The translations under genes were made by a program, and so were the position numbers. From Bacteroidota bacterium (lineage in GTDB: Bacteria > Bacteroidota > Bacteroidia > Cytophagales > Cyclobacteriaceae), in contig JAFDYT010000004.1 of the NCBI GenBank assembly GCA_018266055.1, positions 112,893 through 176,892 on the forward strand: a DNA stretch of 64,000 bases. The letters run 5' to 3'. Of this stretch, positions 3,116-20,517 are shown in pieces; the stretch's first letter is position 1; each line of letters starts with the position of its first letter. The notes below the pieces were generated by a model, which saw nothing but the letters and a program-made list of their open reading frames with translations, searched no databases and was not told the origin of the DNA.

Positions 3116-3121
3116 AGGTTC

Positions 3122-3379
3122 CTATTTTGAAAAAGCTTTTGGTTTTAGCCAACTCAGCAGCGACTGGTTCGACATTTTTTGTTCAACGACCTTCGCATTT
3201 TTCAACTCGCTTGTTCGCACTTTTACAGCCTTGCCCTCTGCGGTAAGCATGGTTGTGAATTCGGTATCCTCCACTTTATCATCGGAAGGATTTGCCGGCA
3301 GTTTCCCTGCAACGCTCAGGAATGGGAGCGTGAGGCCTGCACCTAAAAATTTTCTTCGGGAGAGTGGATCGTTTTTCAT
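3122..3379 (-). CDS. Small Tat-signal protein of unknown function
   Basis: 85 aa. Leader SRRKFLGAGLTLPFLSVAG. The predicted mature part has no Cys or His. It sits 6 nt upstream of the FeS gene. Confidence 0.6.
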   Translation of the reverse strand: MKNDPLSRRKFLGAGLTLPFLSVAGKLPANPSDDKVEDTEFTTMLTAEGKAVKVRTSELKNAKVVEQKMSNQSLLSWLKPKAFSK

Positions 3380-3474
3380 GTGTTAATATTTATTTTTTAA
3401 GGTCACATGGAATGGCCGGATTATCATACCGTTGTGTGAGGAGCATCTTAATGGCCATTTCATGGGATTCATTT

Positions 3475-4314
3475 TTAAAAATTCCAAAGTCGGTTGATGT
3501 TGAATCCAATCAGGAATTGTCTTTCGGAGAGTTTATTTTCATTCAGGAAGTAATTGGCTTGTGGTAAAATGCGATTGTAGTTGCTCACAAAAACCTGAAA
3601 TGCGTGCGAGCCAGTTGACATTTCTATGCCAAGTGCCAGCCCAGGGTTACTCGAAAAATCACCAAAGGGTTGATTATAGTCGATGATGATTGCAGTCTTG
3701 TCGCTGATATTTGCTTTTCCACCCACAGCCAATGCAAACACATTGTTTGAAACGGAAGGATCGACAAGGTTGTAGTGCGCGAAACTGGGAGCAACCTGAA
3801 GTGATATGGCTTGGTTAAATCTTCTCATAATCAACAGTTGACCGAAATAAGAAAAACGATTGGATTCTTTGGGGAAGAAGGAAGCCGATCTTGCATCAAT
3901 GGCCGTGTTGCCATAAAAGGCGATGCTGACCGGTACTTTACCCGACCGCGTCTGGCGGATCAAACCCACTTTGATATTAAAATCCTGCAAGCGATAATCC
4001 TTGGTGGTACCAAACCCGATGGTGATGCGATCGGAAATGGAGTAAGCGAGCGCTAGCCGGATATTGGATGGCCCCCAAAAACCAGCTAAGTCATTGTTGC
4101 CACTGTTGATTAAACCAAAGCGATGTTGAATATCGAACTGCAACGTCTTCTTTGGGTTGAGAACACCCGTGACGTTGTCAATCAACCATGCACTTTGAAA
4201 GGCATTGCGCTGAGGTTTATCTTTTTTTTCTGCCAGTGAGTCGGCTTCCTGTGCAAACAGATTGTGAGACAATACTAAAAGAAGAATGAAAGAAAATGTA
4301 TTGAAGCGTTTCAT
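3475..4314 (-). CDS. Small outer-membrane beta-barrel protein (family not recognised)
   Basis: 279 aa. Signal peptide MKRFNTFSFILLLVLSHNLFAQ, alternating amphipathic strands, and a C-terminal NINRLWNF ending in an aromatic residue. Confidence 0.65.
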   Translation of the reverse strand: MKRFNTFSFILLLVLSHNLFAQEADSLAEKKDKPQRNAFQSAWLIDNVTGVLNPKKTLQFDIQHRFGLINSGNNDLAGFWGPSNIRLALAYSISDRITIGFGTTKDYRLQDFNIKVGLIRQTRSGKVPVSIAFYGNTAIDARSASFFPKESNRFSYFGQLLIMRRFNQAISLQVAPSFAHYNLVDPSVSNNVFALAVGGKANISDKTAIIIDYNQPFGDFSSNPGLALGIEMSTGSHAFQVFVSNYNRILPQANYFLNENKLSERQFLIGFNINRLWNF

Positions 4315-4334
4315 GATTGTATTATTTTAGTTTA

Positions 4335-4775
4335 TTAATTGTTTTGAGCACCTTCATCGATCCACTTTTTAATGAGCCCAATTTGCAAGGGCGAAAGAGG
4401 CATTGCGGGAGGCATATTTTTACCATCCGCGCTTTTCCACTGTAGCATCTCTACAAGTTCACTACCCTCGGAATCGCCCGGAACGATTCCTTTCCCATCG
4501 TCCAATAGAGAACTGAAGGCAACCTCCTTTCGCAAATCGGGGTTTACATTGCCGGGATTGTGACATCCGGCACATTGCCCGCTTAGAATTGGTTGAATGT
4601 CCAAGGCAAAAGAAACATTGTCTTTTACCGGTACTGATAGCTCGGGCGTTATTTTGTCATTGTCACACGCAGTGAGTAAAAAGCCTAAAGCCAGTGCTGA
4701 AGGCAAAATGATTTTGGTTGACGGTTTCATTTGTTTTGTATTTAGATTTATAAATCGTTTTATCGTTGTGTCCAT
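4335..4775 (-). CDS. Lipoprotein with a single c-type haem motif (cytochrome c domain)
   Basis: 146 aa. CAGCH haem-binding motif (SGQCAGCHNPG). Lipobox LLTAC. The likelier start is the internal MKPSTKIILPS at 4730. Confidence 0.7.
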   Translation of the reverse strand: MDTTIKRFINLNTKQMKPSTKIILPSALALGFLLTACDNDKITPELSVPVKDNVSFALDIQPILSGQCAGCHNPGNVNPDLRKEVAFSSLLDDGKGIVPGDSEGSELVEMLQWKSADGKNMPPAMPLSPLQIGLIKKWIDEGAQNN

Positions 4776-4797
4776 GTTTTATATAAGGTGGCGGTTC

Positions 4798-5898
4798 TCA
4801 CATTTTCATCCCACTCATCGCACCGCCACCTTGTTTTACTTTCCATGCGCTGTTTAGCAGAAAACCACCACGGGTCACTATCTTGTCGCCCGGTGATAGT
4901 CCGCTGAGTATTTCCACTTCGCGTTTGTTCTGAATGCCAATGTCCACCATGTGTTGTTCGAACATGCCGTCACTGGTTTCCACCCAAACGATTACGTTGT
5001 TTTCCAAAAGCAAGGCAGACTTGGGAATGACCAGGGTCTCTTTTCGGTTGCGCTTCAAGTACACATACGCCATCAGGCCAGGCTTATAATTTCCTTTCTG
5101 ATTGTTAACTTTGATGCGCATGAGATTGATCTTCGTGTTGTCCTCCAATCGCGGGTTATCGTACACAATCTCACCTTTGATGCGTTCGCCCGGAAAAGCT
5201 TCAAACTCCACTTCAAGTGTTGGTGACTGTCTTAGGTAATTGATTTCACTGCTGTACAATTGGGCTTCGATCCACAAACTACTTAAGTCTGCCAGCCTGA
5301 ACATGGGGCTACCGATCTCAACGTACTCACCCTCGCGCACGAGCAGGTCTGATAAATACCCACTGCGGTTAGAGTAGAAGGTGATCAGTGGAGAAATGCT
5401 TTTCGTCTTTTCAAGCTCGTTGATTTGTTTTTCCGTCAGCGTCCAAAGCTCAAGGCGTCTCCGGGCTGCTTCGACCATTCTTTGGGTAATCTCTTTTTGA
5501 GTAGTAGCTTTTTTATTTTCATCGATGGCCAGCAGGTATTCGTTTTCGTATGACAACAGTTCTTCGCTATAGATACTGTATAGTGGATCTCTGGTTTTTA
5601 CGAATGTGCCAGGGTTGCGCACAAATAGTTTGTCGACTCTGCCCTTTACACGGGAGCTGACTAGGTTGATGTTCCGTTCATCCACCGCTGCGGTGCCAAT
5701 CAAGGTTGTCTCTTCAAAGATTGTTTTGATTTGCGCATTGTCGATCTGAATGTTAGCCACGACTCTTTCCTGATCGGTTAACGAAAGCATCGCTTCATGC
5801 GCATCGCCATGTCCTTCGTGCGACTGTTCTGGTTTCTGTCTACAGGAGGCCGAGAGGGCGAGAATCAATAGGGTTATATAAATCGCATATCGTTGCAT
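4798..5898 (-). CDS. RND efflux periplasmic adaptor (MFP, CusB-like), lipoprotein
   Basis: 366 aa. Lipobox LALSASC, N-terminal HEGHGDAHE, hairpin/lipoyl/beta-barrel adaptor pattern, and a Met-rich tail GGGAMSGMKM. Confidence 0.8.
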   Translation of the reverse strand: MQRYAIYITLLILALSASCRQKPEQSHEGHGDAHEAMLSLTDQERVVANIQIDNAQIKTIFEETTLIGTAAVDERNINLVSSRVKGRVDKLFVRNPGTFVKTRDPLYSIYSEELLSYENEYLLAIDENKKATTQKEITQRMVEAARRRLELWTLTEKQINELEKTKSISPLITFYSNRSGYLSDLLVREGEYVEIGSPMFRLADLSSLWIEAQLYSSEINYLRQSPTLEVEFEAFPGERIKGEIVYDNPRLEDNTKINLMRIKVNNQKGNYKPGLMAYVYLKRNRKETLVIPKSALLLENNVIVWVETSDGMFEQHMVDIGIQNKREVEILSGLSPGDKIVTRGGFLLNSAWKVKQGGGAMSGMKM

Positions 5899-5901
5899 AA
5901 C

Positions 5902-7137
5902 TCACTCGGGTTTAACCAAACTTTCACGATCCATTAAGTAACCGGCATCCAGCGCCACCTCATCATCAGCCTCTAAGCCACTCAGTACAGCTACACGTCC
6001 TAGCGAAACCGGACCAAGCCTCACGAACCTGATTTCCAAAATGTGAGTACCTTCTTCGGTTTGCCCCACTTTTTTCCATACGGCCTGCCTTCCACCCAAA
6101 TACAGAATGCTGGTTGCAGGCAACGTCAACGACTCTTTTGTTTTTGGGTAGATGGTAGCTTCCAATAGCGAATTGATACGGAGGTTTCTATCTCCATTTG
6201 ATAGATACACTCGAACCTGAATGAACTTCTGACCTGTGGCATATTGTGGCTCGATGTATCGCACAATGGTCTTTATCGGTTTGTCAGGAGCCAACTCGCT
6301 CACCATTGTTATACTGTCGTTCATCGCTATTTCATCCTGATGAAGGTTGTCCACGGATAGAATACCCCACACCTCACGAAGGTCATTGATCCAAAAGAGC
6401 GTTTGCCCTGGCGAAACGTATGCTCCTTCACGGACTGGTCCGGACGCTGAAGTTGTAGAAGATGAAGTCTGCTGTTTTTGTTGGGAACCCGAACCCATGC
6501 CACCACCCATTTTACTTCCTGCTGAAGAAGTCATTGCTGTTCCCGTTGGGGGCATTTGGGTTGATGGGGAATAAAAAATATATCCGTCATACAGACTGTA
6601 GATGGAAAGTGTAAAGAGCGTTTTACCCGATTCGATAATTTGTTTTATTTGAGCATCGGTTATTCCAAGCAGTTTAAGTTTGTGAGCTGCATGTTTTGTA
6701 ATTTCACCTTCAGGGTCAACTCTATGTGCATACAGTAGTTCTTCCTGATTGGTGTTAAGGTCGGGGCTGTATAGTTCCAGTATTTTATCGCCTTTGCGCA
6801 CAAATTGATTTTCATATTTTACATAAAGCTTTTCGATGCGGCCACCCACCCGTGCTGCTACTTGGTTACTCCTGCGTTCATCAAGGGCAATAAATCCATA
6901 CGCGTTAACCGGACTTGATTGAAGTTGCTTTACCGGCTTTACTAACGCCTGGCTTGAAATAACTTTCCGGTTAGTTGGTTCCGCTGAAATGGAAAGCGCT
7001 TTTTGGCCTGCTTCATCTTGCGGATGGGTTCCATGTTTGCTGTGCTGATCGGGCGATTCTTTTTTACACCCGTAAAAGAGTATGGATAAACCGACCATTA
7101 TATATAGCGTGATTTTTTTCATGATGTTATTCTTCAA
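5902..7137 (-). CDS. RND efflux periplasmic adaptor (MFP, CusB-like), second paralogue
   Basis: 411 aa. Lipobox ILFYGC. Internal low-complexity insert GSKMGGGMGSGSQQKQQTSSSTTSASG. It overlaps the pump gene by 11 nt. Confidence 0.8.
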   Translation of the reverse strand: MKNNIMKKITLYIMVGLSILFYGCKKESPDQHSKHGTHPQDEAGQKALSISAEPTNRKVISSQALVKPVKQLQSSPVNAYGFIALDERRSNQVAARVGGRIEKLYVKYENQFVRKGDKILELYSPDLNTNQEELLYAHRVDPEGEITKHAAHKLKLLGITDAQIKQIIESGKTLFTLSIYSLYDGYIFYSPSTQMPPTGTAMTSSAGSKMGGGMGSGSQQKQQTSSSTTSASGPVREGAYVSPGQTLFWINDLREVWGILSVDNLHQDEIAMNDSITMVSELAPDKPIKTIVRYIEPQYATGQKFIQVRVYLSNGDRNLRINSLLEATIYPKTKESLTLPATSILYLGGRQAVWKKVGQTEEGTHILEIRFVRLGPVSLGRVAVLSGLEADDEVALDAGYLMDRESLVKPE

Positions 7138-9058
7138 TATCCAATACTTTGAGTGTTCCGGTTTTTTTCAATTCATATTCCCTCACCACCTGGTAGAATA
7201 CCGGCAGCACCACTAGCACGAAAATGGTAGAAGAGACCAAGCCGAACACAAACGGTATGGCAATAGGCTTCATCACATCACTGCCTGTGCCTGTAGAGAT
7301 GAGTATCGGGATTAATCCCAGGATGTTAGCCAGTACGGTCATCAGCAACGGCCTTACGCGTGGCACTGCGCCTTCGAAAATGGAGTCTTGCAAGTTTTGT
7401 CTATTGATGGACTCATTGGCAGCCTTCTTACTTTCCACTAGTCGTTTGATAGAATCATTCATGTAGGCGATCATCAAAACCCCCGTCTCTACAGCTACTC
7501 CGAACAAGGCGATAAATCCCACCGCTACTGCTACAGAAAAGTTTACGTTATAGAAGTACAAAGAGTAAACTCCGCCAACCAAGGCAACCGGTACGCTGAC
7601 AAACACAATGATTACTTCACGAAATGTGTGGAACGTGATGTATAAAATAATTCCGATAACCAACAGCGTAATGGGGATGATGATCATCAATCGTCTTTCG
7701 GCACGCACCTGGTTTTCGTACTGGCCGCTCCATTGGATATAGTAACCTTTGGGGAGTTTTTTAAATTGAGTATCGATTTTTGCTTTTGCTTCATTTACAA
7801 CGCTTCCCATATCGCGGCCCCGCACATTGAACAACACCGTTCCGCGAAGCCTCGTGTTTTCCGAATTGATCATGGGTGGCCCTTCTACTACTGAGATAGT
7901 GGCCAGTGCAGATAGGGGAACAACACCGTACGAGGCTGTTTGCACCGGCACACGCTTGATCTCATCGAGGTCGTTTCTGTAATCTTGTGCGAGTCTGACT
8001 GTAATAGTAAAACGCTCTCGTCCTTCAACTGTGTTTGTGAGGATCATACCACCCAAAGCCATTTCAATAACCATGTTCACATCTTCTATGCTGAGTGCAT
8101 AGCGGGCAATTGCTTCCCGGTTGATTTTTATATTGAGGTATTTCCCACCGGTGAGTTGCTCTAGATAGAGATCGGTTAGTCCGTCAATACCTCTTAGCGC
8201 TTTTTCAATTTCGGCCGTGAGGATGAATAGAGAGTCGAGGTTTGATCCGAATACCTTTACTCCAACATCCGTGCGGATGCCAGTAGAAAGCATGTTGATC
8301 CGGTTTATGATTGGCTGTGTCCATCCCACCACCACCCCGGGAATACGAACGCGCTCGTTCATCTCCGCGATGAGCTTTTCTTTCGTCATCCCTTCTCTCC
8401 ATTTTGATTTTGGTTTGAGCACCACAATGGTTTCAATCATGGACATGGGAGAGTTGTCGGTGGCTGTGTACGCACGGCCTGCCTTGCCCAATACATTTTC
8501 TACTTCGGGGATACTTTTTAATATGCGATCCTGTATTTGTATTATTCGTTTAGCTTCCGCGTTGGAAACATCAGGTAAGGTGACGGGCATCATCAGTAAC
8601 GAACCTTCATCCAGTGGTGGCATGAACTCGGTGCCAAGATTGAGTACAAAAGGAGTGCTGCCAGCAACCAGTACAAAGCAGATTGCGAGTGTTACATACT
8701 TAAATCGCTGGCACAGGCGTATAACCGGTGTATAAATCCTCACAAAGAAGTTCGACACCGGATTGCGGCTCTCCGGTACTAACCGTCCTTTTACAAATAC
8801 CCTCGCCAGCATGGGCGATACGGTGATGGCCAACAAGGCCGCACCCAGCAGCGAAAATGTTTTGGTCAATACCAACGGAGAAAATAATTTGCTTTCTTGG
8901 CCTGTGAGGAAAAGAACCGGGGCAAATGAGACGATCATAATGATCACCGAGAAGAAGATAGATCGTCCAACAGTTTTGGATGACTCTTCTATAATGGCCA
9001 CACGCTCTTCATCAGAAATTTCCCGCGTGTTCCCAATTCGTTGTTTACTTGTTGCCAT
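7127..9058 (-). CDS. cusA: CusA/CzcA-family heavy-metal RND pump, C-terminal fragment (TM5-TM12) of a frameshifted gene
   Basis: 643 aa, collinear with the CusA region that starts at the TM4-TM5 cytoplasmic loop (FFSVIIMIVSFAPVLFLTGQESKLF ... VRPLLMTVLANILGLIPIL). Confidence 0.85.
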   Translation of the reverse strand: MATSKQRIGNTREISDEERVAIIEESSKTVGRSIFFSVIIMIVSFAPVLFLTGQESKLFSPLVLTKTFSLLGAALLAITVSPMLARVFVKGRLVPESRNPVSNFFVRIYTPVIRLCQRFKYVTLAICFVLVAGSTPFVLNLGTEFMPPLDEGSLLMMPVTLPDVSNAEAKRIIQIQDRILKSIPEVENVLGKAGRAYTATDNSPMSMIETIVVLKPKSKWREGMTKEKLIAEMNERVRIPGVVVGWTQPIINRINMLSTGIRTDVGVKVFGSNLDSLFILTAEIEKALRGIDGLTDLYLEQLTGGKYLNIKINREAIARYALSIEDVNMVIEMALGGMILTNTVEGRERFTITVRLAQDYRNDLDEIKRVPVQTASYGVVPLSALATISVVEGPPMINSENTRLRGTVLFNVRGRDMGSVVNEAKAKIDTQFKKLPKGYYIQWSGQYENQVRAERRLMIIIPITLLVIGIILYITFHTFREVIIVFVSVPVALVGGVYSLYFYNVNFSVAVAVGFIALFGVAVETGVLMIAYMNDSIKRLVESKKAANESINRQNLQDSIFEGAVPRVRPLLMTVLANILGLIPILISTGTGSDVMKPIAIPFVFGLVSSTIFVLVVLPVFYQVVREYELKKTGTLKVLDIEE

Positions 9059-10334
9059 CGTTCGGTTGGGTTAGAAGTACTTTGTTTGTTAATGACCGGT
9101 AAGCATTTTCGGCCATTACAATTCCCGGATCAACGACATCGCCAATGGCCAAGGCAATTCCACCCAACGACATAATGTTGGACGTTACTCCAAAAAGCCG
9201 CATGAGTATGAAGCCAATGAGCACCGAGAGCAGAATAGAAGCAATGGCTACCAAGCCGCTTCTGAAATGGAATAGAAAGAGCACTACCGTAACCGATACA
9301 ATTAGGATCTCCTGCCACAATGCTTCTGAAAGAGTATCGATTGAGTCATTGATGAGTCCACTGCGGTCGTATGCAACATGAAACTCAACTCCTTCAGGAA
9401 GGCCCTTCTTAAATTCCTCTATTCTCACCTTCACGCGCTCGATCACATCTTTGGCATTCTCGCCATAGCGCATCACAACAATTCCGCCAACCGCTTCACC
9501 TTCCCCGTTTTCTTCGATGATACCCAATCTTAATTCACCACCCATCTGGATATGGGCAACGTCCTTCAACCGAATTGGTATAGAGCGATACGTTCCAACA
9601 GAAATGTTCTCAATATCTTCTGGTGTTTTGATGTACCCAAGCCCGCGGATCATGTAGCCCATGTCGTTCATCTCAAAGAGACTGCCTCCTACATCACGGT
9701 TATTATTGACAACCGCTTTCGCTACATCCATCAAGGGCACTCCATAATAAATGAGTTTATGCGGGTCAATGGCTACCTGGTATTGTTTTTGAAATCCTCC
9801 GTATGAGGCCACCTCGCTTACCCCTTTTACATTCTGGAGGGCAAACTTTACATACCAGTCCTGCAAGGCTCGCAATTCACCGAGGTTATAGCCATCTCCT
9901 TTTAATGTGTACCAGAATATGTGGCCGATGCCCGTGCCATCGGGGCCAAGGGTAGGGGTGATGCCGGGCGGAAGAAATTTCTGTGCATAGTTCAGTCGTT
10001 CTAATACCCGAGTACGCGACCAATAGATTTCCGCATCGTCCTCGAAAATGACGAAGATGAAACTCATGCCGAACATGGAGGCGGCACGTATGGTTTTTAT
10101 TTTGGGAATGCCCTGCAGGTTGGTAACCAGTGGATACGTGATCTGGTCTTCCATGATCTGCGGGTTGCGCCCCATCCATTCGGTGAACACAATCACCTGG
10201 TTTTCGGACAGATCGGGAATGGCGTCCACCGGGGTTTCTTTGATGGAATAAATTCCACCAATAACAATCATCACAATCCCGATTAAAACCATAAATCGAT
10301 TGTGAATTGCCCAACTGATTATTTTTTCTACCAT
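9045..10334 (-). CDS. cusA: CusA/CzcA-family heavy-metal RND pump, N-terminal fragment (TM1-TM4)
   Basis: 429 aa. MVEKIISWAIHNRFMVLIG start and the conserved TM4 motif GGIALAIGDVVDPGIVMAEN. It ends in a different frame 14 nt inside the next ORF. Confidence 0.85.
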   Translation of the reverse strand: MVEKIISWAIHNRFMVLIGIVMIVIGGIYSIKETPVDAIPDLSENQVIVFTEWMGRNPQIMEDQITYPLVTNLQGIPKIKTIRAASMFGMSFIFVIFEDDAEIYWSRTRVLERLNYAQKFLPPGITPTLGPDGTGIGHIFWYTLKGDGYNLGELRALQDWYVKFALQNVKGVSEVASYGGFQKQYQVAIDPHKLIYYGVPLMDVAKAVVNNNRDVGGSLFEMNDMGYMIRGLGYIKTPEDIENISVGTYRSIPIRLKDVAHIQMGGELRLGIIEENGEGEAVGGIVVMRYGENAKDVIERVKVRIEEFKKGLPEGVEFHVAYDRSGLINDSIDTLSEALWQEILIVSVTVVLFLFHFRSGLVAIASILLSVLIGFILMRLFGVTSNIMSLGGIALAIGDVVDPGIVMAENAYRSLTNKVLLTQPNDGNK

Positions 10335-10383
10335 AACTTAGTTGTAAAAATCGTGTTGTGTGCCCAAGCACTATTAAATAATT

Positions 10384-10413
10384 CTGTCTATTTGTTATAC
10401 TTTACTGTCTATT
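10384..10413 (-). promoter_or_regulatory. Direct repeat CTGTCTATT x2 at 21-bp spacing, between the AraC-HMA gene and cusA
   Basis: Copies at 10384-10392 and 10405-10413 are identical 9-mers. They sit 50-80 nt upstream of the cusA start at 10334. Confidence 0.45.
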
Positions 10414-10428
10414 GCCAAGTCGATGATG

Positions 10429-11211
10429 TTAATGTTGACAGATTAGATAACCTTTGCTTCCTTTCGTATCTTCGATCGTATAGATTGCATTTTGCCCAAG
10501 TGCGTTTGGGCTTTCATCAAATCGGTATACTTCTTTTATGCTCATGCCTTTGGCTTTTTTCATATTGCCGGCCCCAACAATTTTGTTATCATGAATGTCA
10601 AAAGCACGCACATACCCTTTGGCGTGTATTTCTGAGAGCACTTCCATCAGCGATTGGTTGCGATGCTCCGTTCGTTGAAGTTTTTTAAACTCGCGCACCG
10701 AAAAGCCCGTAACCTTTCTGAATTGTGAAGAAAGGTGCTGCACATTGGTGTAGTGTAGCCTGTCCGCAATTTCACTAAGTGTTGATTGACCTTCGCGCAA
10801 TAGTCTTTTTGCTCGTTCAACGCGCTGCCGGATAAGGTATGCCTCAATAGTAATTTTCTCTACTCGCTTAAATAGCTTACTGAGGTTATGGTAATTTCTC
10901 GATAGCCTTTTGCCGAGGTGTACCGAGAATTTCTCTACCCTGTCAAGTCGCTCCAGTTCATCTAGATATCTTTTTGCCTCAAGTTTAATCGCCTCGGTAG
11001 TTTGCTCATCCTTGGTGTGAATGATTTGAAGATTAAATTCATTCAATCTCTTTTCCAGCAAGGGTAGAATATGGTCATTGTCCGATAAAAAGGATACCTG
11101 CCCGAGTTCAATCTTGACGCGTACCACATTGAACTGATTTAAAATCTGCCGCACCACGTAAATGCAGCGATCGCAAAGCATGTTTTTAATATGCAACTTG
11201 AATATTTTCAT
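10429..11211 (-). CDS. AraC-family regulator with an N-terminal HMA-like CxxC domain and an extra C-terminal domain
   Basis: 260 aa. The N-terminus is MKIFKLHIKNMLCDRCIYVVRQIL. The AraC HTH region is LSEIADRLHYTNVQHLSSQFRKVTGFSVREFKK. A further ~75 aa of unknown function follow. Confidence 0.8.
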   Translation of the reverse strand: MKIFKLHIKNMLCDRCIYVVRQILNQFNVVRVKIELGQVSFLSDNDHILPLLEKRLNEFNLQIIHTKDEQTTEAIKLEAKRYLDELERLDRVEKFSVHLGKRLSRNYHNLSKLFKRVEKITIEAYLIRQRVERAKRLLREGQSTLSEIADRLHYTNVQHLSSQFRKVTGFSVREFKKLQRTEHRNQSLMEVLSEIHAKGYVRAFDIHDNKIVGAGNMKKAKGMSIKEVYRFDESPNALGQNAIYTIEDTKGSKGYLICQH

Positions 11212-11349
11212 AACGCAACCCCGATGGGTTTTAGGTACTAAAAAAAAATGAATGGAAATTTTTGTTATCCCCTCAGAACTTGAGAATAGGACACAAACAT
11301 GCAGTGCTTGCTAAGACTCGTAGCAAGTAGAGGCAAAGAGTTGAATGAC

Positions 11350-11877
11350 TTAAATAAGAAACGTACAGAGAAGAATACGGAGATATTGGCCAGTGTGCAA
11401 TAGTCCAGGTGGGCCATTTGCATGATTATTGTTTGGAGAAAATCTTGTAAGGTTATCAAGTAAGTTCTCATTCAAAACACATGGAAGCATGAATATCTTG
11501 ATGAGCCGCAATTCCAACGAGTGACCCAAACTATTTAATGTAGAAGGCGCATTGGCTAGGGTAGAATAGAACGCCCGAGTCAGATCATCACAGCAGCCTC
11601 CGTCTTTGTCGGTTGCGTTATGATCATGCTTGCCGGTACCGTGATCGTGCGATGGGTGGCTCTCGGCCTTATTCTGATGATGATGATTGGTATGTTTTTT
11701 ATCAGAATGACTATGGGCTGTGGATTTTGATATGCGTGAAGGCCGAACCGTTTGAAAAGAAATTAACCCCACATCGCAGAGAAAGTCACAACTCAAAACC
11801 GATACCATGGACAAAATGACAATCCCTGCCAAGGAACACCTAAACTTCCGTATGGTTTTGAGGCTTATCATTTCCAA
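11350..11877 (-). CDS. His/Cys-rich membrane-anchored putative metal-binding protein
   Basis: 175 aa. TM helix LAGIVILSMVSVLS, then CDFLCD, then HSHSDKKHTNHHHQNKAESHPSHDHGTGKHDH and GGCCDD. The start may be the MISLK methionine at 11871. Confidence 0.5.
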   Translation of the reverse strand: MEMISLKTIRKFRCSLAGIVILSMVSVLSCDFLCDVGLISFQTVRPSRISKSTAHSHSDKKHTNHHHQNKAESHPSHDHGTGKHDHNATDKDGGCCDDLTRAFYSTLANAPSTLNSLGHSLELRLIKIFMLPCVLNENLLDNLTRFSPNNNHANGPPGLLHTGQYLRILLCTFLI

Positions 11878-12101
11878 TTCTTAGAACAAAAGAACGATGC
11901 TAAACCAAAACAAATTATGACAGTCGTTTTATCAAAACATGATTAAAGTCATGAAATAAGGTTACGTTTGACTAAATGTACAAAAAAGTTGTTAGAGATT
12001 TCAATTCTGCGGATTACTAACAAGGTGCAGCGGTATCAGTCGTAACCATGAATACAATATCTCCAGCTAAACTTTTCAAAGGCTCTTCTTTTTTGACTCA
12101 T

Positions 12102-13133
12102 CTATTTAAACTCAATCTTCTTAAGTAGATTGGTGCCTTTAAAATAGTACGCTTCGTAGTAGTTTTCATCAAAAGTGTAAACAGTTTCAACAATGATTTT
12201 ATCGGCATTGCCCTGCCCTGCGATTACCATTTGCTGCTGTTGAAGGGTCAGTTCAGAAAAAGGGATTACTTGTTCAAATTCAAAGCCTTCATCATACGTA
12301 AATTCAAGCGCATAGTTGGCGTTTTGCCATTGCAGTTTTGACTCTACGCCTTTTGACAGAAAACCATACGTTATTGAACCCTTATTTGCATCCAACAAGC
12401 TATTGCCCGATTGGGCGAGCATAAACACACCCGAAACAACCATTGCCCAATATCCAATTTTTTTGAAAACGAACTCGCTTAGCTTGGGTAATATCCATCT
12501 CATTGAAACTGTTGATAGGATGGCCGATGTTGCAACCACCAAGCCGATTGTAATGACATTGGCGTTTATCAAGCCGAAGAGTGCGTAAAGAACAATCTTA
12601 ATCAAATGCAGGGTCACTTCATTTGCCGCCCGTGTAGCCACAATTTCTTCTTTGGTCAAGCCATGCCGCAAGTAAAAACTATTAAAAAGTAAACCTACAA
12701 CACCCGTAATCCCCGATAAGAACCCAGCAAAAAAGCCAATGAGAATAAATTGAAAATGTGATAACTTGTTGCCCTGTTGTTCAATTTTTCTTTTTCTTAA
12801 TGCAAAAGGAAGGTTGGCAACTAAAAAAACACCCATTGCAATCTCCAAGTAGATTGGATTGATAAACCGCAACAACCATGCACCCAGCCACACAGCGGGC
12901 AAAGCAGCGGGAACAAAGTATTTGACAATTGACCAATCGATGTTTTTATAGAATGCTACAAACCGTGATGATGAACTCGTAAAAGTACCAATGGATAAAG
13001 CCGATGGGACTTGATTGATGGGTAAAAGATTGCCTAGGATAGGCATCAGAATAAGCCCGGCACCGCCACCACAAATCGTACTTAATGAAAAGGCTATGTA
13101 GCTACAAACAAATATTAAAAATAGTGTGGACAT
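12102..13133 (-). CDS. TSUP (TauE/SafE) family anion exporter with a ~100-aa C-terminal soluble extension
   Basis: 343 aa. ICGGGAGLILMPILG motif and 7-8 TM helices. The hydrophilic tail runs ANKGSITYGFLSKG...KKIEFK. Confidence 0.75.
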   Translation of the reverse strand: MSTLFLIFVCSYIAFSLSTICGGGAGLILMPILGNLLPINQVPSALSIGTFTSSSSRFVAFYKNIDWSIVKYFVPAALPAVWLGAWLLRFINPIYLEIAMGVFLVANLPFALRKRKIEQQGNKLSHFQFILIGFFAGFLSGITGVVGLLFNSFYLRHGLTKEEIVATRAANEVTLHLIKIVLYALFGLINANVITIGLVVATSAILSTVSMRWILPKLSEFVFKKIGYWAMVVSGVFMLAQSGNSLLDANKGSITYGFLSKGVESKLQWQNANYALEFTYDEGFEFEQVIPFSELTLQQQQMVIAGQGNADKIIVETVYTFDENYYEAYYFKGTNLLKKIEFK

Positions 13134-13159
13134 ATTATTTGTCTAAATAAAATGAAATA

Positions 13160-13184
13160 GCGGAAGGAACTGAGTTCCTTCCGC
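13160..13184 (-). terminator. Rho-independent terminator after the PepSY-like gene
   Basis: Perfect 11-bp stem GCGGAAGGAAC/GTTCCTTCCGC with loop TGA. A T-rich tract follows on the minus strand. Confidence 0.6.
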
Positions 13185-13196
13185 TTGACTACATGA

Positions 13197-13616
13197 CTAT
13201 TTTACTTCTGTGCCGTTGGCTGAGTAAAAAACTTCATCCGTCTTGATTCCGTTTTTAAATTCAATCTCATATTTGACTGCGCCTTTTGAAGTGTCAATCT
13301 TGGCCACTGCTACGATGGTAGCCTTTTTGTGAGTTGAGTTAAAAACCTCCGTTACCCGCTCGGGCAAATCAGTAAACGATAAAGGGCTCTCGGTTTCGAG
13401 CCACTCACCTGTATCTGAGAAATTGGCCGAACACTTTTTGCCGTTCCAATCAAACCCCGCTTCGTATTCATGCTTACCCTCTTTGTCCCACTTAACGTTT
13501 AGGGCATCTGGAAACTTGGCATGAAACGCATCTGTAACTGACTGGGGTGCTTTTGACTGAGCAAAGCCTGTGATGGCCACCAAAGCAGCCGCCACAATTG
13601 AAAATATTTTTTTCAT
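13197..13616 (-). CDS. PepSY-like (DUF2874-type) periplasmic protein
   Basis: 139 aa. Signal peptide MKKIFSIVAAALVAITGFAQ. Repeated beta-hairpin pattern VKWDKEGKHEYEAGF / VKYEIEFKNG. Confidence 0.6.
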   Translation of the reverse strand: MKKIFSIVAAALVAITGFAQSKAPQSVTDAFHAKFPDALNVKWDKEGKHEYEAGFDWNGKKCSANFSDTGEWLETESPLSFTDLPERVTEVFNSTHKKATIVAVAKIDTSKGAVKYEIEFKNGIKTDEVFYSANGTEVK

Positions 13617-13658
13617 TGTGATTATAATTTTAAAATAGTTGAAAAAAAAAATTGACGC

Positions 13659-14132
13659 CTACATGGATGGAAGGCCGTAAGCTGAACTGATAAGTGACGG
13701 TGGTTTAAAAACTTCGGATAGATAGCCATCTCTAATAAAACTAACCCCACTTGCCGACTTTTTGATTTCGGTTATGTAGGGTTTGGCTATTGAAAATGTA
13801 AGGCAAGTGGAAAATGAGACAAATGAAACAGAGCGATGTTGAACTGGATGGCTTTTATGTGGCCTTTGGTCATCTCCGTTCTGATGTTTGTCAAATAGGC
13901 CGTCAATGTTTACAAGGTGGTCGGTGATGAAGTCAAACGCATTCATATCTGCATGCTCGGTAGATTGGCAACTTCGATACATCTGCGGAATTTCGGACAA
14001 GAACGAAAAATCCCCTAAAGGCAAAAGCAACGTGCCGAGTGAATAAAACCCGATAAGGAAATGACAAATTAACTTGTTCACAGGTTGATGAACGGCATTT
14101 TTGGGTTTAAGTTTCTCCACAGGACATTTCAT
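13659..14132 (-). CDS. Hypothetical membrane-anchored protein
   Basis: 157 aa. One TM helix followed by LLLPLGDFSFLSEIPQMYRSC and a His/Asp-rich stretch DKHQNGDDQRPHKSHPVQH. The start is uncertain. Confidence 0.4.
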   Translation of the reverse strand: MKCPVEKLKPKNAVHQPVNKLICHFLIGFYSLGTLLLPLGDFSFLSEIPQMYRSCQSTEHADMNAFDFITDHLVNIDGLFDKHQNGDDQRPHKSHPVQHRSVSFVSFSTCLTFSIAKPYITEIKKSASGVSFIRDGYLSEVFKPPSLISSAYGLPSM

Positions 14133-14242
14133 GGTTCTGTATCAGCTAATGATTTTGAATTATTTGGGCGATTTTTCGCAAACGGCTCTGCTCCTAAGTC
14201 TCACAACCCCCAAATTTCTCTTGATAGTAATTTCATATTACC

Positions 14243-15865
14243 TCAGTACCTGCTATTCTTACTATTCATTGCCCGCTTCCAAATTTGAGATCGGTAGAAC
14301 GGCCCAAGGTATCCACGTACTTTCAAAGTATCAGAATCAATCAACCACAAGGATGATGTATAAACATTCCCATTTCCCGGATCAAGTATTTTTCCACTCA
14401 CCCACTTATCACCTTCTTTTTTGAAGTCCCAGATAATTTTCATCCCGACCACTTTTGTATTCTTTAACTCGCCATCACATCCTGTGCATACGGGGTCAGT
14501 GCCTTCATGTGGCAACAAGAATATTTTGCGAATGAACCCTTTCAATTCTCCGTCTATATTCTTGATTTCAACTATGGATTTCACTTTGTTCCAATTGTCG
14601 TCAATCGTTTGCCAGATGCCCGCAGGGGTTTTCTCATCTATAACTCCTTCACGTTTCCAAGTCTGTGTTCTGTAAAACAAGTTGAGGGGCCCGGCATAGC
14701 CTCTGACTTGTAACGTGTTCGCATCATTCATCCAAATTTTGCTTGTGTAAATCTCCCCGCTCTCTGGATCGAGAATTTTTCCTAATCCCCATGAATTGTC
14801 ATTCTGCTTAAATCCCCAAAAGAAATTCATTCCAACAACCTTTTTATCTTTCCGTTCACCTGTGCATTTGGTACAAACGGGATCTTCTCCCTGAAAGGGT
14901 TCCAACAAGATTTGTGACACTTTCCCCTCGATAGAATTTCCCGATTTTACAATTTCAATTACGGATAATGGAGAGCCTGTTTGCTCATTGTAAGTAGTCC
15001 ATCTTCCCTCGACCGACTGGCCAAGCAAAGCTGTTGAACTCATTAAGATCAAAATAGCAGCAGCTATTGATTTCCTGCTCTTTACTTTTAGCTTGCATGC
15101 CTTTGGCCTTGATGTAACCTCATCAAAAGCTTCGTGATACTTCGCGTTCTCTGTTTTCATCAACTTATCCCACCAAGTAAAGTATAATCCGTAGTTACTG
15201 TGGAAGTGTTCGTGGTGCATATTGTGATGGGTGATGGCAGTGTTCCAATTCAGCAATTTATTTTTAGTGAACCCCTTGGGTAAAATTTCAAATCCCAGGT
15301 GACCGATCACATTTCGAACGATCATATAAGTAAGGAATAAAAAGATAGTTAGGGGATGCAACGGAAGAGCAAACACCATGATGGGAAGTACCACCGCTTG
15401 TACAAACGCTTCCCACGGATGGAAAGAGTAAGCTGCCCAGGGTGAAGGATTGGTTGACTCATGATGAACACGATGAACGTACTTAAATAGTTTTTTGTGG
15501 TGCATTAATCGGTGCGTCCAGTAGAAGTAGAGATCATGGAATACCAGTGTAACAATGAAACTGAAGATCATGTATGCCACACCATAGTCGTTGATGTTAT
15601 AATAGATTAATGTTATGCCGGCTTTCTCCGCAGAATAAATGCAGAAGCCAACCAGTGAAAAGATAATCACTGTACTCATGGAATAGGCAAACTCCTTCCA
15701 CAGTTGTTTGGATTTCGGAAAGTTCACCTGTATGAAAAGGTGTCCCCACCAATTCTTGCCAATCATCCAAAAAAGCACGAAGGCAATACTGGCCGGGATC
15801 AGGTAACGCAGCAAGTCAAACAGGTAAATGTTTGGCCATACATCAATAAAGTTTTTCGCTTCCAT
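14243..15865 (-). CDS. Fatty-acid hydroxylase/sterol-desaturase-family membrane domain fused to two DUF2147-like domains
   Basis: 540 aa. His boxes HRLMHH, HRVHHES and HHNMHHEHFH. An internal signal-peptide-like segment KSIAAAILILMSSTALLGQS is followed by two repeats (GRWTT...VRGY...TQTWKR and GIWQT...VRGY...SQIWKR). Confidence 0.75.
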   Translation of the reverse strand: MEAKNFIDVWPNIYLFDLLRYLIPASIAFVLFWMIGKNWWGHLFIQVNFPKSKQLWKEFAYSMSTVIIFSLVGFCIYSAEKAGITLIYYNINDYGVAYMIFSFIVTLVFHDLYFYWTHRLMHHKKLFKYVHRVHHESTNPSPWAAYSFHPWEAFVQAVVLPIMVFALPLHPLTIFLFLTYMIVRNVIGHLGFEILPKGFTKNKLLNWNTAITHHNMHHEHFHSNYGLYFTWWDKLMKTENAKYHEAFDEVTSRPKACKLKVKSRKSIAAAILILMSSTALLGQSVEGRWTTYNEQTGSPLSVIEIVKSGNSIEGKVSQILLEPFQGEDPVCTKCTGERKDKKVVGMNFFWGFKQNDNSWGLGKILDPESGEIYTSKIWMNDANTLQVRGYAGPLNLFYRTQTWKREGVIDEKTPAGIWQTIDDNWNKVKSIVEIKNIDGELKGFIRKIFLLPHEGTDPVCTGCDGELKNTKVVGMKIIWDFKKEGDKWVSGKILDPGNGNVYTSSLWLIDSDTLKVRGYLGPFYRSQIWKRAMNSKNSRY

Positions 15866-15962
15866 AGTTTAAAATTTATGGGGGCGAACTTATCACTGGC
15901 GTGATTGAAAGTCTCTTTGATTGTGAAAAATCCTTACTGATTTCAAAATCAGCATGAAAAAG

Positions 15963-16988
15963 TCAGTTTACCTGGCTTTTGCGGTAGGCCGTTGGAGTAG
16001 TTCCTTTCAAATCTTTGAACGCTTTGTTGAAAGGGCCAATGGATTGATAGCCCAAATCATACGCTATTTCCAGAATTGTTTTTCGTGTTTGAGCAGGGTC
16101 GGACAAGATTTCACAGGCTTCATTAACCCGGTATTGATTCAGGTAGTCATTAAAATTCCGAAACCCAAGTTGACCGTTAATTAATCGTCTCAGCCTGTAT
16201 TCTTGCTCGTTCATTAACTCGGCTAACGCCCCGATGGTAAGTCCTTCATTCTTATAAACCTTTTGTTCCTCCATCAGAGACTGAAGCTTTGCACTGAGTT
16301 GAGGGTCATCCACGGAAGGAGTTTTTGGTTTTGGAATCTCTTTAAAGAAAAACCCTGGGCGCATCCCAAAATTGCTTAACAGGAAATAAAGTGTGATGGC
16401 GAAAATGGCAAATCGTTGAAGTACTTGAAGAACGATGATTGTTTCTTGTTCGATAGGAATTGCCTCAACAATCAATGTTACACCGATAAGTGCTGCCGTT
16501 CCGACAAGAAAAATATTTCGGAACCTGATGCGCGAATCAACCAAATCGCCCTGCTTTGTCTTCAAAGCTGTGTAGAGTCCGGCCAATACAAATCCAAATG
16601 AAGTTAAACTTGCCACTATCCGGGAGACTTGACGAAAGCCCGACCATGGGATAAAGTCACTAACAAAGAAATTCATGTGTGGAATGAGAAGAACGAGAAT
16701 CCAAATCAGCAAAGACCAACGGAACCTAAAATGGTCATCAAAAATTGAACGAGCTAAAAGCCAGAATAAAACAGGAATGCTAATGGCACCAATGGGTACG
16801 ATGATCCGGAGAATTAATACGGATTGTACCAGATCCGACTCAACTATGATGTAACAGAAAATGCTGATTGTAAGTCCAATGCCTGTCCACGTATTCAGAC
16901 CACTTCGTGAATGCCGTGCAAGCAAAATGCACACCAGCCCCAGCAAGGTGGCCGTAGCAATCTGAACAATGAAATGAATCTCTTGCAT
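15963..16988 (-). CDS. Membrane-embedded AraC-family transcriptional regulator
   Basis: 341 aa. About 6-7 N-terminal TM helices and a C-terminal AraC HTH (ILEIAYDLGYQSIGPFNKAFKDLKGTTPTAYRK). Confidence 0.75.
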   Translation of the reverse strand: MQEIHFIVQIATATLLGLVCILLARHSRSGLNTWTGIGLTISIFCYIIVESDLVQSVLILRIIVPIGAISIPVLFWLLARSIFDDHFRFRWSLLIWILVLLIPHMNFFVSDFIPWSGFRQVSRIVASLTSFGFVLAGLYTALKTKQGDLVDSRIRFRNIFLVGTAALIGVTLIVEAIPIEQETIIVLQVLQRFAIFAITLYFLLSNFGMRPGFFFKEIPKPKTPSVDDPQLSAKLQSLMEEQKVYKNEGLTIGALAELMNEQEYRLRRLINGQLGFRNFNDYLNQYRVNEACEILSDPAQTRKTILEIAYDLGYQSIGPFNKAFKDLKGTTPTAYRKSQVN

Positions 16989-17038
16989 TTTAAAATACCG
17001 AATAATGTCTAAAAATAGCGTTTTTAAACGGTTTTAAA

Positions 17039-17062
17039 CTATTCAATAAATTTATTGAATAG
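17039..17062. promoter_or_regulatory. Perfect 24-bp palindrome, candidate ArsR/SmtB-type operator
   Basis: CTATTCAATAAATTTATTGAATAG. It lies 50 nt upstream of the likely ArsR start at 17112. Confidence 0.6.
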
Positions 17063-17111
17063 ATGGAACCAACTGTTTTTCTTTGTGGTTGAAGGACTAT
17101 TAAGACAGACT

Positions 17112-17780
17112 ATGAACAAACGTCAATTCAAGGACAAGGTATATAGTGAGCTGGCCAAGATCACCAAATCAATGGCCAATCCTCACCGGATGGAAATTAT
17201 CGAGCTGCTTTCACAAGGTGAGTTTTCAGTGGAACAGATAGCGGATCAGATCAGTCTTACCATCGCCAATGCCTCTCAGCATTTACAAGTATTAAAAACT
17301 GCTCAACTGGTTGAGATCAATCGACAAGGTAATTTCATTTTCTATCGGCTTTCCAACGGCAATGTGTTTAAAGCCTGGAAATCATTGCGCGAGCTGGGTG
17401 TTGAACGAATTGCTGCCATTGAAAAAGTGGTGAAAGAGTTTCGGGAGTCAAAGTTTGATTTGGAAATGGTGACCATTGATCAGTTGATTGAAAAGTTAGC
17501 GTCTGGCAAGGTCACAATCCTCGATGTTCGATCCGAATCCGAATTTAAGCAAGGACACATTGCCAACGCAATCTCAATACCAATCGAAGAACTATCTAAG
17601 CGATTGAAAGAATTACCGAAACGCACGGAGATTGTCGCGTATTGTCGCGGGCCATTTTGTGTGTATGCCGATGAAGCAGTTGCCATGTTGACCAAAGCAG
17701 GCTACAAAGCAACACGCTTAGAAGAAGGGTTCCCTGATTGGAAACTGCAAGACCTACCCATAGAAGTTTCAATGAACTAA
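17112..17780 (+). CDS. ArsR/SmtB-family repressor fused to a rhodanese domain
   Basis: Winged HTH: NPHRMEIIELLSQGEFSVEQIADQISLTIANASQHLQVLK. Rhodanese: ILDVRSESEFKQGHI...IVAYCRGPFC. The track start at 17055 lies inside the palindrome, so I chose ATG 17112. Confidence 0.8.
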   Translation: MNKRQFKDKVYSELAKITKSMANPHRMEIIELLSQGEFSVEQIADQISLTIANASQHLQVLKTAQLVEINRQGNFIFYRLSNGNVFKAWKSLRELGVERIAAIEKVVKEFRESKFDLEMVTIDQLIEKLASGKVTILDVRSESEFKQGHIANAISIPIEELSKRLKELPKRTEIVAYCRGPFCVYADEAVAMLTKAGYKATRLEEGFPDWKLQDLPIEVSMN

Positions 17781-17791
17781 CAACATTTACA

Positions 17792-18901
17792 ATGACAACC
17801 GAAGAATCAAAAATTGACATCTCGATATTATCCTCCTGGCTTGAAAAGAAAAAACCTGTTACTGTTTTAGATGTAAGACCAAAAACAGAAAGAGAGGAAT
17901 GGTCGATTCCTGGAAGCGTTCATGCTGACGTCTATGACAAATTGAAAGCCGGAGATACAAATGCGCTTGACCACATTGAATTAAATATAGGCATACCCGT
18001 TGTAACCGTATGTGCAGCAGGTAAGACAAGCTTGAAGGCGGCAGAATTGCTGAAGGACAAAGGATTTGAAGTCTATTCACTCGAAGGTGGAATGAAGGCT
18101 TGGAACTTCGCCTGGAGTACGGCTGAGGTTGTATTGAATGATGTAAAGATTATCCAGATAAGACGATCATCGAAAGGAGTCCTGTCTTATATTATCGGAT
18201 CAGATGATGAGGCCATTGTAATTGATGCGGCCCTTGATTCACACGTTTATCTTGATCTTGCCAACAAAAATGGCTGGACGATCAAGTATGTAACCGATAC
18301 CCACATCCATGCGGATTACCTCTCGCGTACAAGAGAACTGGCAAAGGCAAGTATTGCCACACATGTACTTATTGATGCGGCCAATGTTGAATATGGTTAT
18401 TCACCTGTTAGCAATGGTGATTATTTACATTTTGGAAAAGCAGCACTGGAAGTAATCTACACACCGGGGCATACAATGGAGAGCACTTCATTCCGGCTCG
18501 GTGATGATGCAATATTTACGGGAGATACACTATTTGTAGATGGTGTCGGCAGACCAGACCTGAAAGCCGATCAGGATGAAGCAATCAAGAGGTCAAGACT
18601 CTTGTATGCATCACTCCAACGTTTGCTTACGCTCAATCCAAAAACGTTTGTGCTACCGGCTCACCTGGCAACGGCTGTACCGTTTGATGGTAAACTCATT
18701 TCAGAAACTATCGAAAACCTAAAAGATAAATTAGACATGCTCAAGCTAAAAGAGAGCGAATTTGTGAAGTACACTACCTCACGAATTCCGCCAACTCCTC
18801 CTAATTATTTAACGATAGCAAGCCTGAACAAACAAGGTTCGTATGATGGCCATATTCCGGCTGACCTCGAAGCGGGTGCGAATCGTTGTGCTATTGCTTA
18901 A
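17792..18901 (+). CDS. Rhodanese-MBL-fold fusion (persulfide dioxygenase-like, Blh/ETHE1 type)
   Basis: N-terminal rhodanese (VLDVRPKTEREEWSIPGS...CAAGKTS). MBL motif VTDTHIHADY and YTPGHTMES. I chose ATG 17792, after the upstream stop at 17780. Confidence 0.75.
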   Translation: MTTEESKIDISILSSWLEKKKPVTVLDVRPKTEREEWSIPGSVHADVYDKLKAGDTNALDHIELNIGIPVVTVCAAGKTSLKAAELLKDKGFEVYSLEGGMKAWNFAWSTAEVVLNDVKIIQIRRSSKGVLSYIIGSDDEAIVIDAALDSHVYLDLANKNGWTIKYVTDTHIHADYLSRTRELAKASIATHVLIDAANVEYGYSPVSNGDYLHFGKAALEVIYTPGHTMESTSFRLGDDAIFTGDTLFVDGVGRPDLKADQDEAIKRSRLLYASLQRLLTLNPKTFVLPAHLATAVPFDGKLISETIENLKDKLDMLKLKESEFVKYTTSRIPPTPPNYLTIASLNKQGSYDGHIPADLEAGANRCAIA

Positions 18902-18911
18902 TTAATTTAGT

Positions 18912-20159: not shown

Positions 20160-20167
20160 ACCTAACC

Positions 20168-20515: not shown

Positions 20516-20517
20516 CC

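Follow-up and report, generated by a model that had tools for sequence, protein, structure and literature searches.

A candidate copper-responsive AraC-type regulator with an HMA-fold sensor domain, at the head of a CusA-type pump and redox gene cluster in a member of the Bacteroidota

Which protein switches on the copper-export genes of Bacteroidota? The textbook copper sensors are CueR, CsoR, CopY, and CusRS. In Bacteroidota, only two-component and extracytoplasmic function (ECF) homologs of known copper sensors have been reported (review of copper signalling, PMC10141476). How, then, would these bacteria switch on copA, copZ, and multicopper oxidase genes? The question is raised by one locus in a 64,000-nt stretch of contig JAFDYT010000004.1 from a Bacteroidota bacterium of the family Cyclobacteriaceae (hereafter the window, numbered from its first letter). 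Here, an open reading frame (ORF) at 10429..11211 on the minus strand, with an ATG start and a TAA stop, encodes a protein of 260 amino acids (aa). According to the ORF list, its homologs, and an AlphaFold model, this protein consists of a heavy-metal-associated (HMA)-like domain, an AraC-type DNA-binding domain, and a C-terminal domain. An initial annotation made from the letters alone had placed the ORF at the same coordinates without giving its strand, and the peptides it quoted (MKIFKLHIKNMLCDRCIYVVRQIL..., HRNQSLMEVLSEIHAKGYVRAFD..., and ...GYLICQH) are all found in the 260-aa translation. On balance, we consider it somewhat probable that the protein is a one-component AraC-type activator that responds to Cu(I)/Ag(I) through its HMA domain.

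The N-terminal 63 residues (11023..11211, minus) have an HMA fold according to structure prediction, Foldseek, a profile search, and the PF00403 matches of relatives. AlphaFold predicted aa 1-62 as a beta-alpha-beta-beta-alpha-beta domain with a predicted local distance difference test score (pLDDT) of about 90, in which strands 2-9, 30-35, and 38-43 and a short last strand 61-62 are combined with helices 14-26 and 48-57. Foldseek superposed this model on HAH1 with a template modeling score (TM) of 0.72 and a root-mean-square deviation of 2.3 A, and on GolB with 0.73 and 1.9 A; TM for HAH1, GolB, Atx1, and Ccc2a ranged from 0.70 to 0.75. A profile built from 32 homologous N-termini matched 36 PDB sequences, and 35 of these were HMA domains, mostly of Cu(I) proteins. 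The E-values ranged from 4e-10 (ATP7B) to 1e-3, with Bacillus subtilis CopZ at 2.7e-4 and HMA domains of CopA also among the matches, and the CxxC of the regulator family was aligned onto the CxxC of CopZ and ATP7B. PF00403 was matched individually by 22 of the 32 relatives (best 1.5e-7), and the N-terminus of the window's own protein showed a weak match to NCBIfam CopZ (E=0.019, aa 5-36). We conclude that the N-terminal domain is a diverged HMA domain by fold, by profile, and by its relatives. This agrees with the initial annotation, which had described an HMA-like ferredoxin-fold domain with a CxxC loop (M-L-C-D-R-C).

The proposed metal ligands are Cys13 and Cys16 in the loop N-M-L-C-D-R-C (codons of C13-D-R-C16 at 11164..11175, minus). 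Among 89 homologous ORFs, taken from about 80 genomes, 88 carried the motif [NG]-M-[VL]-C-x-R-C; in the ORF sequences compared, conservation at this level is not due to chance. N10, M11, C13, R15, and C16 were invariant in the family alignment (A6), and the CxxC loop was invariant across the clade of three-domain proteins except in one member (P0010). HMA domains bind Cu(I) through their CxxC loops, and Cu-bridged dimers of Atox1 and of CopZ are known. An invariant pair of cysteines in a CxxC loop would also suit a thiol-disulfide switch for oxidative or thiol stress, which copper also causes, in the manner of the RclR cysteines, and, as described below, a redox module of respiratory type accompanies the three-domain form. 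However, it is the whole domain that is HMA, including the Met before the first Cys of GMxCxxC loops, and the partners of the family are genes for CopA, CopZ, and multicopper oxidases, not oxidative-stress genes. We therefore regard such a switch as improbable.

The middle of the protein, aa 67-178 (10678..11013, minus), is an AraC/XylS DNA-binding domain of seven helices with two helix-turn-helix (HTH) motifs, as identified by Pfam and Foldseek. The standard AraC HTH pair named in the initial annotation is borne out here, since the Pfam cut-offs were passed (HTH_18 at aa 101-177, 53.9 bits with a cut-off of 33.6; HTH_AraC, 33.6 bits with a cut-off of 26.6) and the seven-helix fold was predicted (helices 67-87, 95-103, 107-118, 122-140, 145-151, 157-168, and 172-178). 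The Foldseek TM(target) of this domain was 0.79 for 3oio, 0.75 for AdpA-DNA, 0.74 for SoxS, and 0.71 for the AraC DNA-binding domain. For the whole protein, the AlphaFold model from a 36-sequence alignment had a mean pLDDT of 81.8 and a predicted TM (pTM) of 0.70, and 15 full-length homologs were 45-92% identical to it. Pfam and NCBIfam scans of the 260-aa protein returned AraC-type domains only, and none of the MerR/CueR, CsoR, CopY, or CusRS-type domains. By its domain content, the regulator is outside all known copper-sensor families.

AraC, RhaS, MarA, and SoxS have the same DNA-binding domain, which, as here, is C-terminal to a sensor/dimerisation domain. The sensor of AraC is a cupin-type sugar-binding domain, whereas here an HMA domain of about 63 aa is joined almost directly to helix 1 in the model, and in contrast to all four proteins an extra domain follows the DNA-binding domain. 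A regulatory domain C-terminal to an AraC DNA-binding domain has a precedent in Rob, but the domain of Rob is GyrI-like and Rob has no N-terminal sensor, whereas the C-terminal domain here gave no significant PDB fold match. Ada, with an N-terminal Cys4-Zn site and an AraC-type HTH, and RclR, with redox-active cysteines, resemble the present protein in combining an AraC-type domain with an N-terminal cysteine module. The zinc of Ada has a structural and catalytic role (methyl acceptor), RclR is a sensor of oxidants, and an HMA fold is absent from both. The full-text literature open to search yielded no account of an HMA-AraC regulator; since subscription-only papers are not part of it, a prior description is possible. 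Within that literature, the sensor-output pairing of HMA and AraC in a one-component metalloregulator is undescribed, and the three-domain protein is a rare sub-variant of it.

HMA-AraC relatives are encoded in at least 562 species genomes (at least 599 pattern matches; one genome per species was scanned), so the architecture is no peculiarity of this window. Among the matches listed, the hosts were mostly Bacteroidota, such as Flavobacterium, Chryseobacterium, Chitinophaga, Prevotella, Alistipes, and Cyclobacteriaceae, together with Ignavibacteria and a few metagenome-assembled genomes labelled otherwise. Nearly all relatives among them were of a two-domain form of about 187-191 aa, and the three-domain form was confined to about a dozen loci, only in Cyclobacteriaceae, Chryseolinea, and Flammeovirgaceae. 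Judging from this distribution, the two-domain form, to which the 'shorter paralogue' belongs, is the usual one, and the 260-aa protein represents a rare derivative in a small Cytophagales clade. The nearest two-domain relatives of the three-domain form (P0016 and P0019) have an apparent remnant of the first hairpin of the C-terminal domain, which suggests that these two were secondarily truncated.

The genomic context of the two-domain form points to copper export. Across 64 two-domain loci, the regulator gene was followed on its own strand by a gene for CopA in 44, for CopZ in 5, for a DUF3347 protein in 2, and for CusA in 1. Thus, either copA or copZ comes directly after the two-domain form in 49 of these loci. 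In 55 of 64, a copper-related gene was found within 5 kb, and multicopper oxidase genes were among these. The window itself contains one such locus. The paralogue at 36121..36696 (minus; Pfam HTH_18) has 191 aa, is 37% identical to the 260-aa regulator over 188 aa (E 8e-35), and is encoded upstream of a CPC-type CopA; the initial annotation had noted a shorter paralogue next to copA. A 75-aa ORF at 35885..36112 (plus) fills most of the 375-nt gap between this paralogue and the copA promoter, and a copZ-like gene of 68 aa with a K-C-A-G-C loop (33196..33402, minus), below the 100-aa cut-off of the ORF list, lies just downstream of copA. In 7 of the 64 two-domain loci (L041, L049, L053, L057, L058, L078, and L096), mostly of Chitinophagaceae, a tandem pair of HMA-AraC genes was present upstream of copA.

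We searched for the operator with a 12-nt position weight matrix (PWM), for which the training set was 48 two-domain loci, all of them from other genomes. Its consensus half-site, AATTATATAACA, occurs twice as a direct repeat with starts 21 bp apart, and pairs scored high only at this distance (mean best score 16.9, versus <3 for the other gaps between 15 and 27). When both strands of the window were scanned (127,936 positions), only three sites scored >=10, and each was on the correct strand before copZ, copA, or cusA. The best in the window was the predicted operator before the copZ-like gene (33469..33501, minus; 19.7). The one before copA (33508..35745) is at 35794..35826 (minus; 17.6), and a TTTTTG box and then the start of copA come after it. 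The third, in the spacer between the araC-type gene and cusA (10372..10404, minus; 12.2), consists of the half-sites TAAAGTATAACA (10393..10404) and AATTATTTAATA (10372..10383), and its score was reached by 35 of 20,000 shuffles of the spacer. Among other three-domain loci, sites before the target genes scored 17.4 in L006 and 11.0 before cusA in L004 and L027. The initial annotation had proposed an electrophoretic mobility shift assay (EMSA) on the spacer between the araC-type gene and cusA. Its idea of a regulator with an HMA sensor gains support at the family level, because copA or copZ lies downstream in 49 of 64 loci and because a predicted operator is present in the spacer proposed for EMSA. 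A 9-mer repeated 21 bp apart in the same spacer, AATAGACAG, was rejected as the operator; it is not conserved in L001 or L020-L025, and the family consensus corresponds to TAAAGTATAACA and AATTATTTAATA.

The position of the half-sites relative to the promoter was also shared. The Bacteroidota -7 box (TAnnTTTG) had its TTTG 35-36 nt from the start of the proximal half-site in 24 of 42 family loci, which would place this half-site over the -33 region. For the cus operon, the candidate -7 box is GATTTTTA (10345..10352, minus), with TTTA instead of TTTG at an offset of 35; TTTA is likewise found at this offset in L042, L075, L081, and L082. A sigma-70 promoter scan returned nothing beyond chance, with a model that does not represent Bacteroidota promoters. 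AraC binds the direct repeats I1-I2 as 17-bp sites at a 21-bp period, with I2 overlapping -35. The operator predicted here resembles araI1-I2 in having direct repeats at a 21-bp period, of which the proximal one is over -35/-33.

From these features we infer the following mechanism. The HMA input domain, of the CopZ/Atox1 type, would use Cys13 and Cys16 to bind Cu(I) and probably also Ag(I), taking the metal either from a free pool or by handover from a CopZ-type chaperone. Metal loading would favour the binding of two protomers to the two direct-repeat half-sites 21 bp apart (10372..10404). Metal-induced dimerisation of the HMA domains may be the most economical switch, because dimers bridged by Cu(I) are known for such domains. 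As the promoter-proximal half-site would overlap the -33 region, the protein could work as a class-II-type activator, comparable to AraC at araI1-I2. The operon under its control would be the long one that starts at 10334 and comprises a split cusA, two cusB-like genes, and genes for a cytochrome c, a DUF5777 protein, an NrfC-like protein, and an NrfD-like protein.

The same sensor could work with the opposite sign, as a repressor like CopY or CsoR that metal releases, if the apo-protein occupied both half-sites and blocked the -33 region until it bound Cu(I). An operator overlapping -33 also suits repression, and the Enterococcus CopY, which is fed Cu(I) by an HMA chaperone, is a repressor. 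On the other side, AraC/XylS proteins with tandem repeats at -35 are typically activators (AraC, MarA, SoxS, and RhaS), and the fixed phasing to the -7 box in 24 of 42 loci argues for contacts between an activator and RNA polymerase, as a repressor needs overlap only. We consider repression unlikely, though it has more to be said for it than the thiol switch.

The proposed activator can be compared with two known copper regulators. CueR, the MerR-family Cu(I)/Ag(I) sensor of copA and cueO, would do the same job, namely that of a cytoplasmic one-component switch for CopA, CopZ, and multicopper oxidase genes, as suggested by the context of the two-domain family. Its fold and mechanism are unrelated, however: here there is no MerR domain, no inverted repeat in a long promoter spacer, and no sign of DNA distortion. 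The ligands of CueR are a Cys pair at the dimer interface, whereas the ligands proposed here are in the HMA loop. CopY/CopZ of Enterococcus hirae also has an HMA protein in the signalling path, and the window likewise contains a copZ-like gene (33196..33402) with its own predicted operator. CopY is a winged-helix repressor with a CxCx4CxC site that works with a separate HMA chaperone, whereas in the present protein the HMA domain is built into the regulator.

The initial annotation had put the regulator at the head of the cus operon, with a spacer at 10335..10428, and this stands: past the 94-nt spacer, CusA-like genes follow directly on the regulator's strand. The N-terminal half of the CusA-type resistance-nodulation-division (RND) pump (9045..10334, minus; 429 aa) matches Pfam ACR_tran at positions 1-415, and the C-terminal half (7127..9058, minus; 643 aa) was identified by its PDB match to CusA. 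The best PDB match of the C-terminal half was Escherichia coli CusA (1e-154), ahead of ZneA (4e-90). At the positions aligned with Met573, Met623, and Met672, which form the Cu(I)/Ag(I) triad of CusA-type pumps (heavy-metal efflux RND), every residue is Met. The downstream pump is of the CusA type by these alignments. Its two halves overlap by 14 nt (ATGGCAACAAGTAA), with the split in the cytoplasmic loop after transmembrane helix 4. All homologous loci have a split cusA. The junction, ATGAAAACAACTGA, is kept in L001, L003, L004, and L020-L027, including a locus whose regulator is only 50% identical; in L034, cusA is also split, but at a different junction and with a short gap between the halves. 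An apparently unsplit cusA in L024 had been taken as a sign of a frameshift, and it turned out to be an artefact of an N in the record, with the same junction as the other loci. The split cusA looks like a genuine two-gene RND transporter and not a sequencing error.

Two genes for CusB-like membrane-fusion proteins follow at 5902..7137 and 4798..5898 (minus), as identified by Pfam HlyD_D23 and conserved synteny. Downstream of them is a redox module of five genes that are apparently co-transcribed (852..4775, minus), recognized from Pfam, the sequences, and short gaps. These genes encode a cytochrome c lipoprotein with CAGCH (4335..4775), a DUF5777 outer-membrane-type barrel (3475..4314), an 85-aa protein with a twin-arginine translocation (Tat) signal (3122..3379), an NrfC-like 4Fe-4S protein with a Tat signal (2159..3115), and an NrfD-like membrane protein (852..2162), all on the minus strand. 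The module looks like a periplasm-facing, quinol-linked electron-transfer system that would be co-regulated with copper efflux. As far as the nrfD-like gene, the intergenic gaps measured 0-95 nt, which is consistent with one long operon. A terminator scan returned no terminator between the araC-type gene and cusA.

Immediately upstream of the regulator is a gene for a His-rich 175-aa membrane protein (11350..11877, minus). The N-terminal part of the protein includes a hydrophobic segment; a long stretch rich in His (HSHSDKKHTNHHHQNKAESHPSHDHGTGKHDH) and a GGCCDD motif are also present, and the protein matched no Pfam family. This gene is kept directly upstream of the regulator in L020-L033 and L001-L004, and the three-domain regulator is always preceded by it. 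Downstream of the regulator, two arrangements were found. One has the split cusA, two cusB-like genes, and then the redox module (the window, L001, and L004). In the other, the redox module comes directly after the regulator, without the pump (L006 and L028-L030); in L006, it is at 8914..13981, directly under the three-domain regulator. All three-domain loci with sufficient flanking sequence (the window, L001, L004, L006, and L028-L030) contained the redox module. Thus, the initial view of the regulator as the head of a cus operon holds in this window, in that it is upstream of a CusA-type pump, but across the clade the regulator tracks the redox module as much as the pump.

The C-terminal domain is what sets the three-domain form apart. 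It covers aa 183-260 (78 aa; 10432..10665, minus), its approximately 78 residues are conserved in the 15 full-length homologs, and Cys76 of the domain (C258 of the protein; codon 10438..10440) was invariant in 13 sequences. A separate AlphaFold model (54 sequences; pLDDT 77) has one helix and five strands. A profile built from 13 copies of the domain was compared by hmmsearch with 1.84 billion representative proteins, which gave 92 matches, about 88 of them outside AraC fusions, with E-values from 8.5e-8 to 1e-3. Nearly all of the non-AraC relatives are stand-alone proteins of about 100 aa, and the matches span profile positions of about 3-75. They share with the C-terminal domain the pattern G-[YF]...F...Y-R-F-[ED]...Y-x-I...G-x-K-G-x-L. 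By profile and pattern, the C-terminal domain is homologous to this stand-alone family of about 100 aa. The stand-alone relatives have an acidic S-D-P-x-D motif, the most conserved feature of their family, and a C-terminal A-Y-G-x-Y tail of their own; the fused copies have lost the motif, lack the tail, and end in an invariant I-C-Q.

The stand-alone family (P0159, P0165, P0225, and about 200 relatives; for example, P0159 of Mucilaginibacter paludis) is named 'phosphoribosylpyrophosphate synthetase' by NCBI, and some members are named 'Fe2+ or Zn2+ uptake regulation protein' by JGI. Neither Pribosyltran nor Pribosyl_synth was matched in Pfam or NCBIfam by the C-terminal domain or by 41 stand-alone relatives. 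Because there was no Pfam or NCBIfam match at all, the synthetase name would be a misnomer, and both database names appear to be propagated errors. None of the family's relatives has a solved structure. The genomic contexts of the stand-alone relatives, with a 2-oxoglutarate-Fe(II) oxygenase, a MoxR ATPase, or a two-component system nearby, gave no consistent functional lead, and no stand-alone copy was found within the 64-kb window. A degenerate HMA domain was considered for the C-terminal domain after a weak BLAST match to the HMA domain of the paralogue (E 0.19), and it was rejected because the hhalign probability was only 0.3%. The presence of the C-terminal domain correlates with the redox module. 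It is a clade-specific addition that could serve as a second input, as an oligomerisation module, or as a third thiolate donor through Cys258.

In the three-domain subfamily, the C-terminal domain could even sense the relevant signal by itself, a non-metal ligand or partner such as one from the NrfC/NrfD-cytochrome system, with the HMA domain kept as an inherited dimerisation or docking module. This idea draws on the membership of the domain in an independent and widespread stand-alone family, and on the redox module that occurs in every three-domain locus with enough flank, four of these without a pump. Against it, the CxxC loop has stayed invariant in the three-domain clade outside P0010, the fused copies have no S-D-P-x-D, and the contexts of the stand-alone family offer no functional lead. 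We rate it as an unlikely explanation, somewhat below repression and close to the thiol switch.

Several results weigh against a copper-responsive activator. PF00403 was not matched by the window's own N-terminal domain at E up to 10, and since 22 of the 32 relatives matched it, membership in PF00403 applies at the family level only. The spacer site, at 12.2, was the weakest of the three in the window, and the same spacer of the closest homologs (L020-L025) scored about 9-11, only with 21-22-bp spacing and after training on all loci. The position of the operator does not tell activation from repression. Because the pump is absent from L006 and L028-L030, the three-domain form, which heads these pump-less operons, could respond to a different signal than the two-domain family does. 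Pfam and NCBIfam scans matched the C-terminal domain to no family, and the PDB fold search with its model gave nothing significant (best E 0.12, low TM); the initial annotation was thus right in leaving it unassigned. Finally, two RNA-type runs (X13 and X20) contained contigs that were short, low in depth, and identical, and that covered the regulator, the His-rich gene, and cusA. These contigs are compatible with transcription of the region and silent on induction.

With these points taken into account, the Cu(I)/Ag(I)-responsive activator remains the reading we favour. A wider reading is tentative and, to us, rather doubtful as a whole. In it, HMA-AraC proteins would fill the place of the missing general copper sensor in the cytoplasm of Bacteroidota and of neighbouring phyla, and Cu(I)-bridged or CopZ-docked HMA domains would assemble an activator on 21-bp repeats, a mechanism undescribed among metalloregulators. 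In the three-domain clade, the C-terminal domain with its invariant terminal Cys would then be a second input that couples copper/silver efflux to the periplasmic NrfC/NrfD-cytochrome c module. The phylum concerned includes gut Bacteroides, Prevotella, and Alistipes, fish and poultry pathogens, and soil and marine degraders. What the present analysis offers for it is a candidate regulator family, the putative ligand residues C13 and C16, and a predicted operator with its half-sites, spacing, and promoter phasing. Besides the regulator, it flags a misnamed protein domain family, a CusA pump whose split is conserved, and a redox module that seems to be under common control with copper efflux, all of them uncharacterised.

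The regulator is located in a region of about 850..38005 that holds the cus and cop genes and reads as a metal and sulfur stress island. Integrase genes at 36746..38005 (minus) and 38418..39599 (plus) flank it at the copA end, and near-identical copies of the region around the araC-type gene were found in hot-spring, microbial-mat, lake, mine-drainage, and sludge metagenomes. The island is probably mobile, since integrase genes flank it and since near-identical copies in unrelated metagenomes suggest it. An integrase-flanked island with such copies in many unrelated metagenomes might also carry a decaying or non-functional regulator, with the operon under some other control. However, the ORF is intact, as it is in 15 orthologs (45-92% identity) with conserved synteny, the functional residues are invariant, a matching predicted operator is present, and the RNA-type contigs cover the gene. 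We think decay very improbable.

The island has other genes as well. Those at 23369..28940 encode another RND pump, this one full-length, together with its membrane-fusion protein and outer-membrane factor. A P-type ATPase without an HMA domain (21336..23348), a DUF6660 protein (29180..29611), and a DtxR/MntR-type regulator (32524..33174) are also encoded. An ArsR-rhodanese regulator and a rhodanese-metallo-beta-lactamase protein are encoded at 17055..18901, and a DsrE-like protein at 20168..20515.

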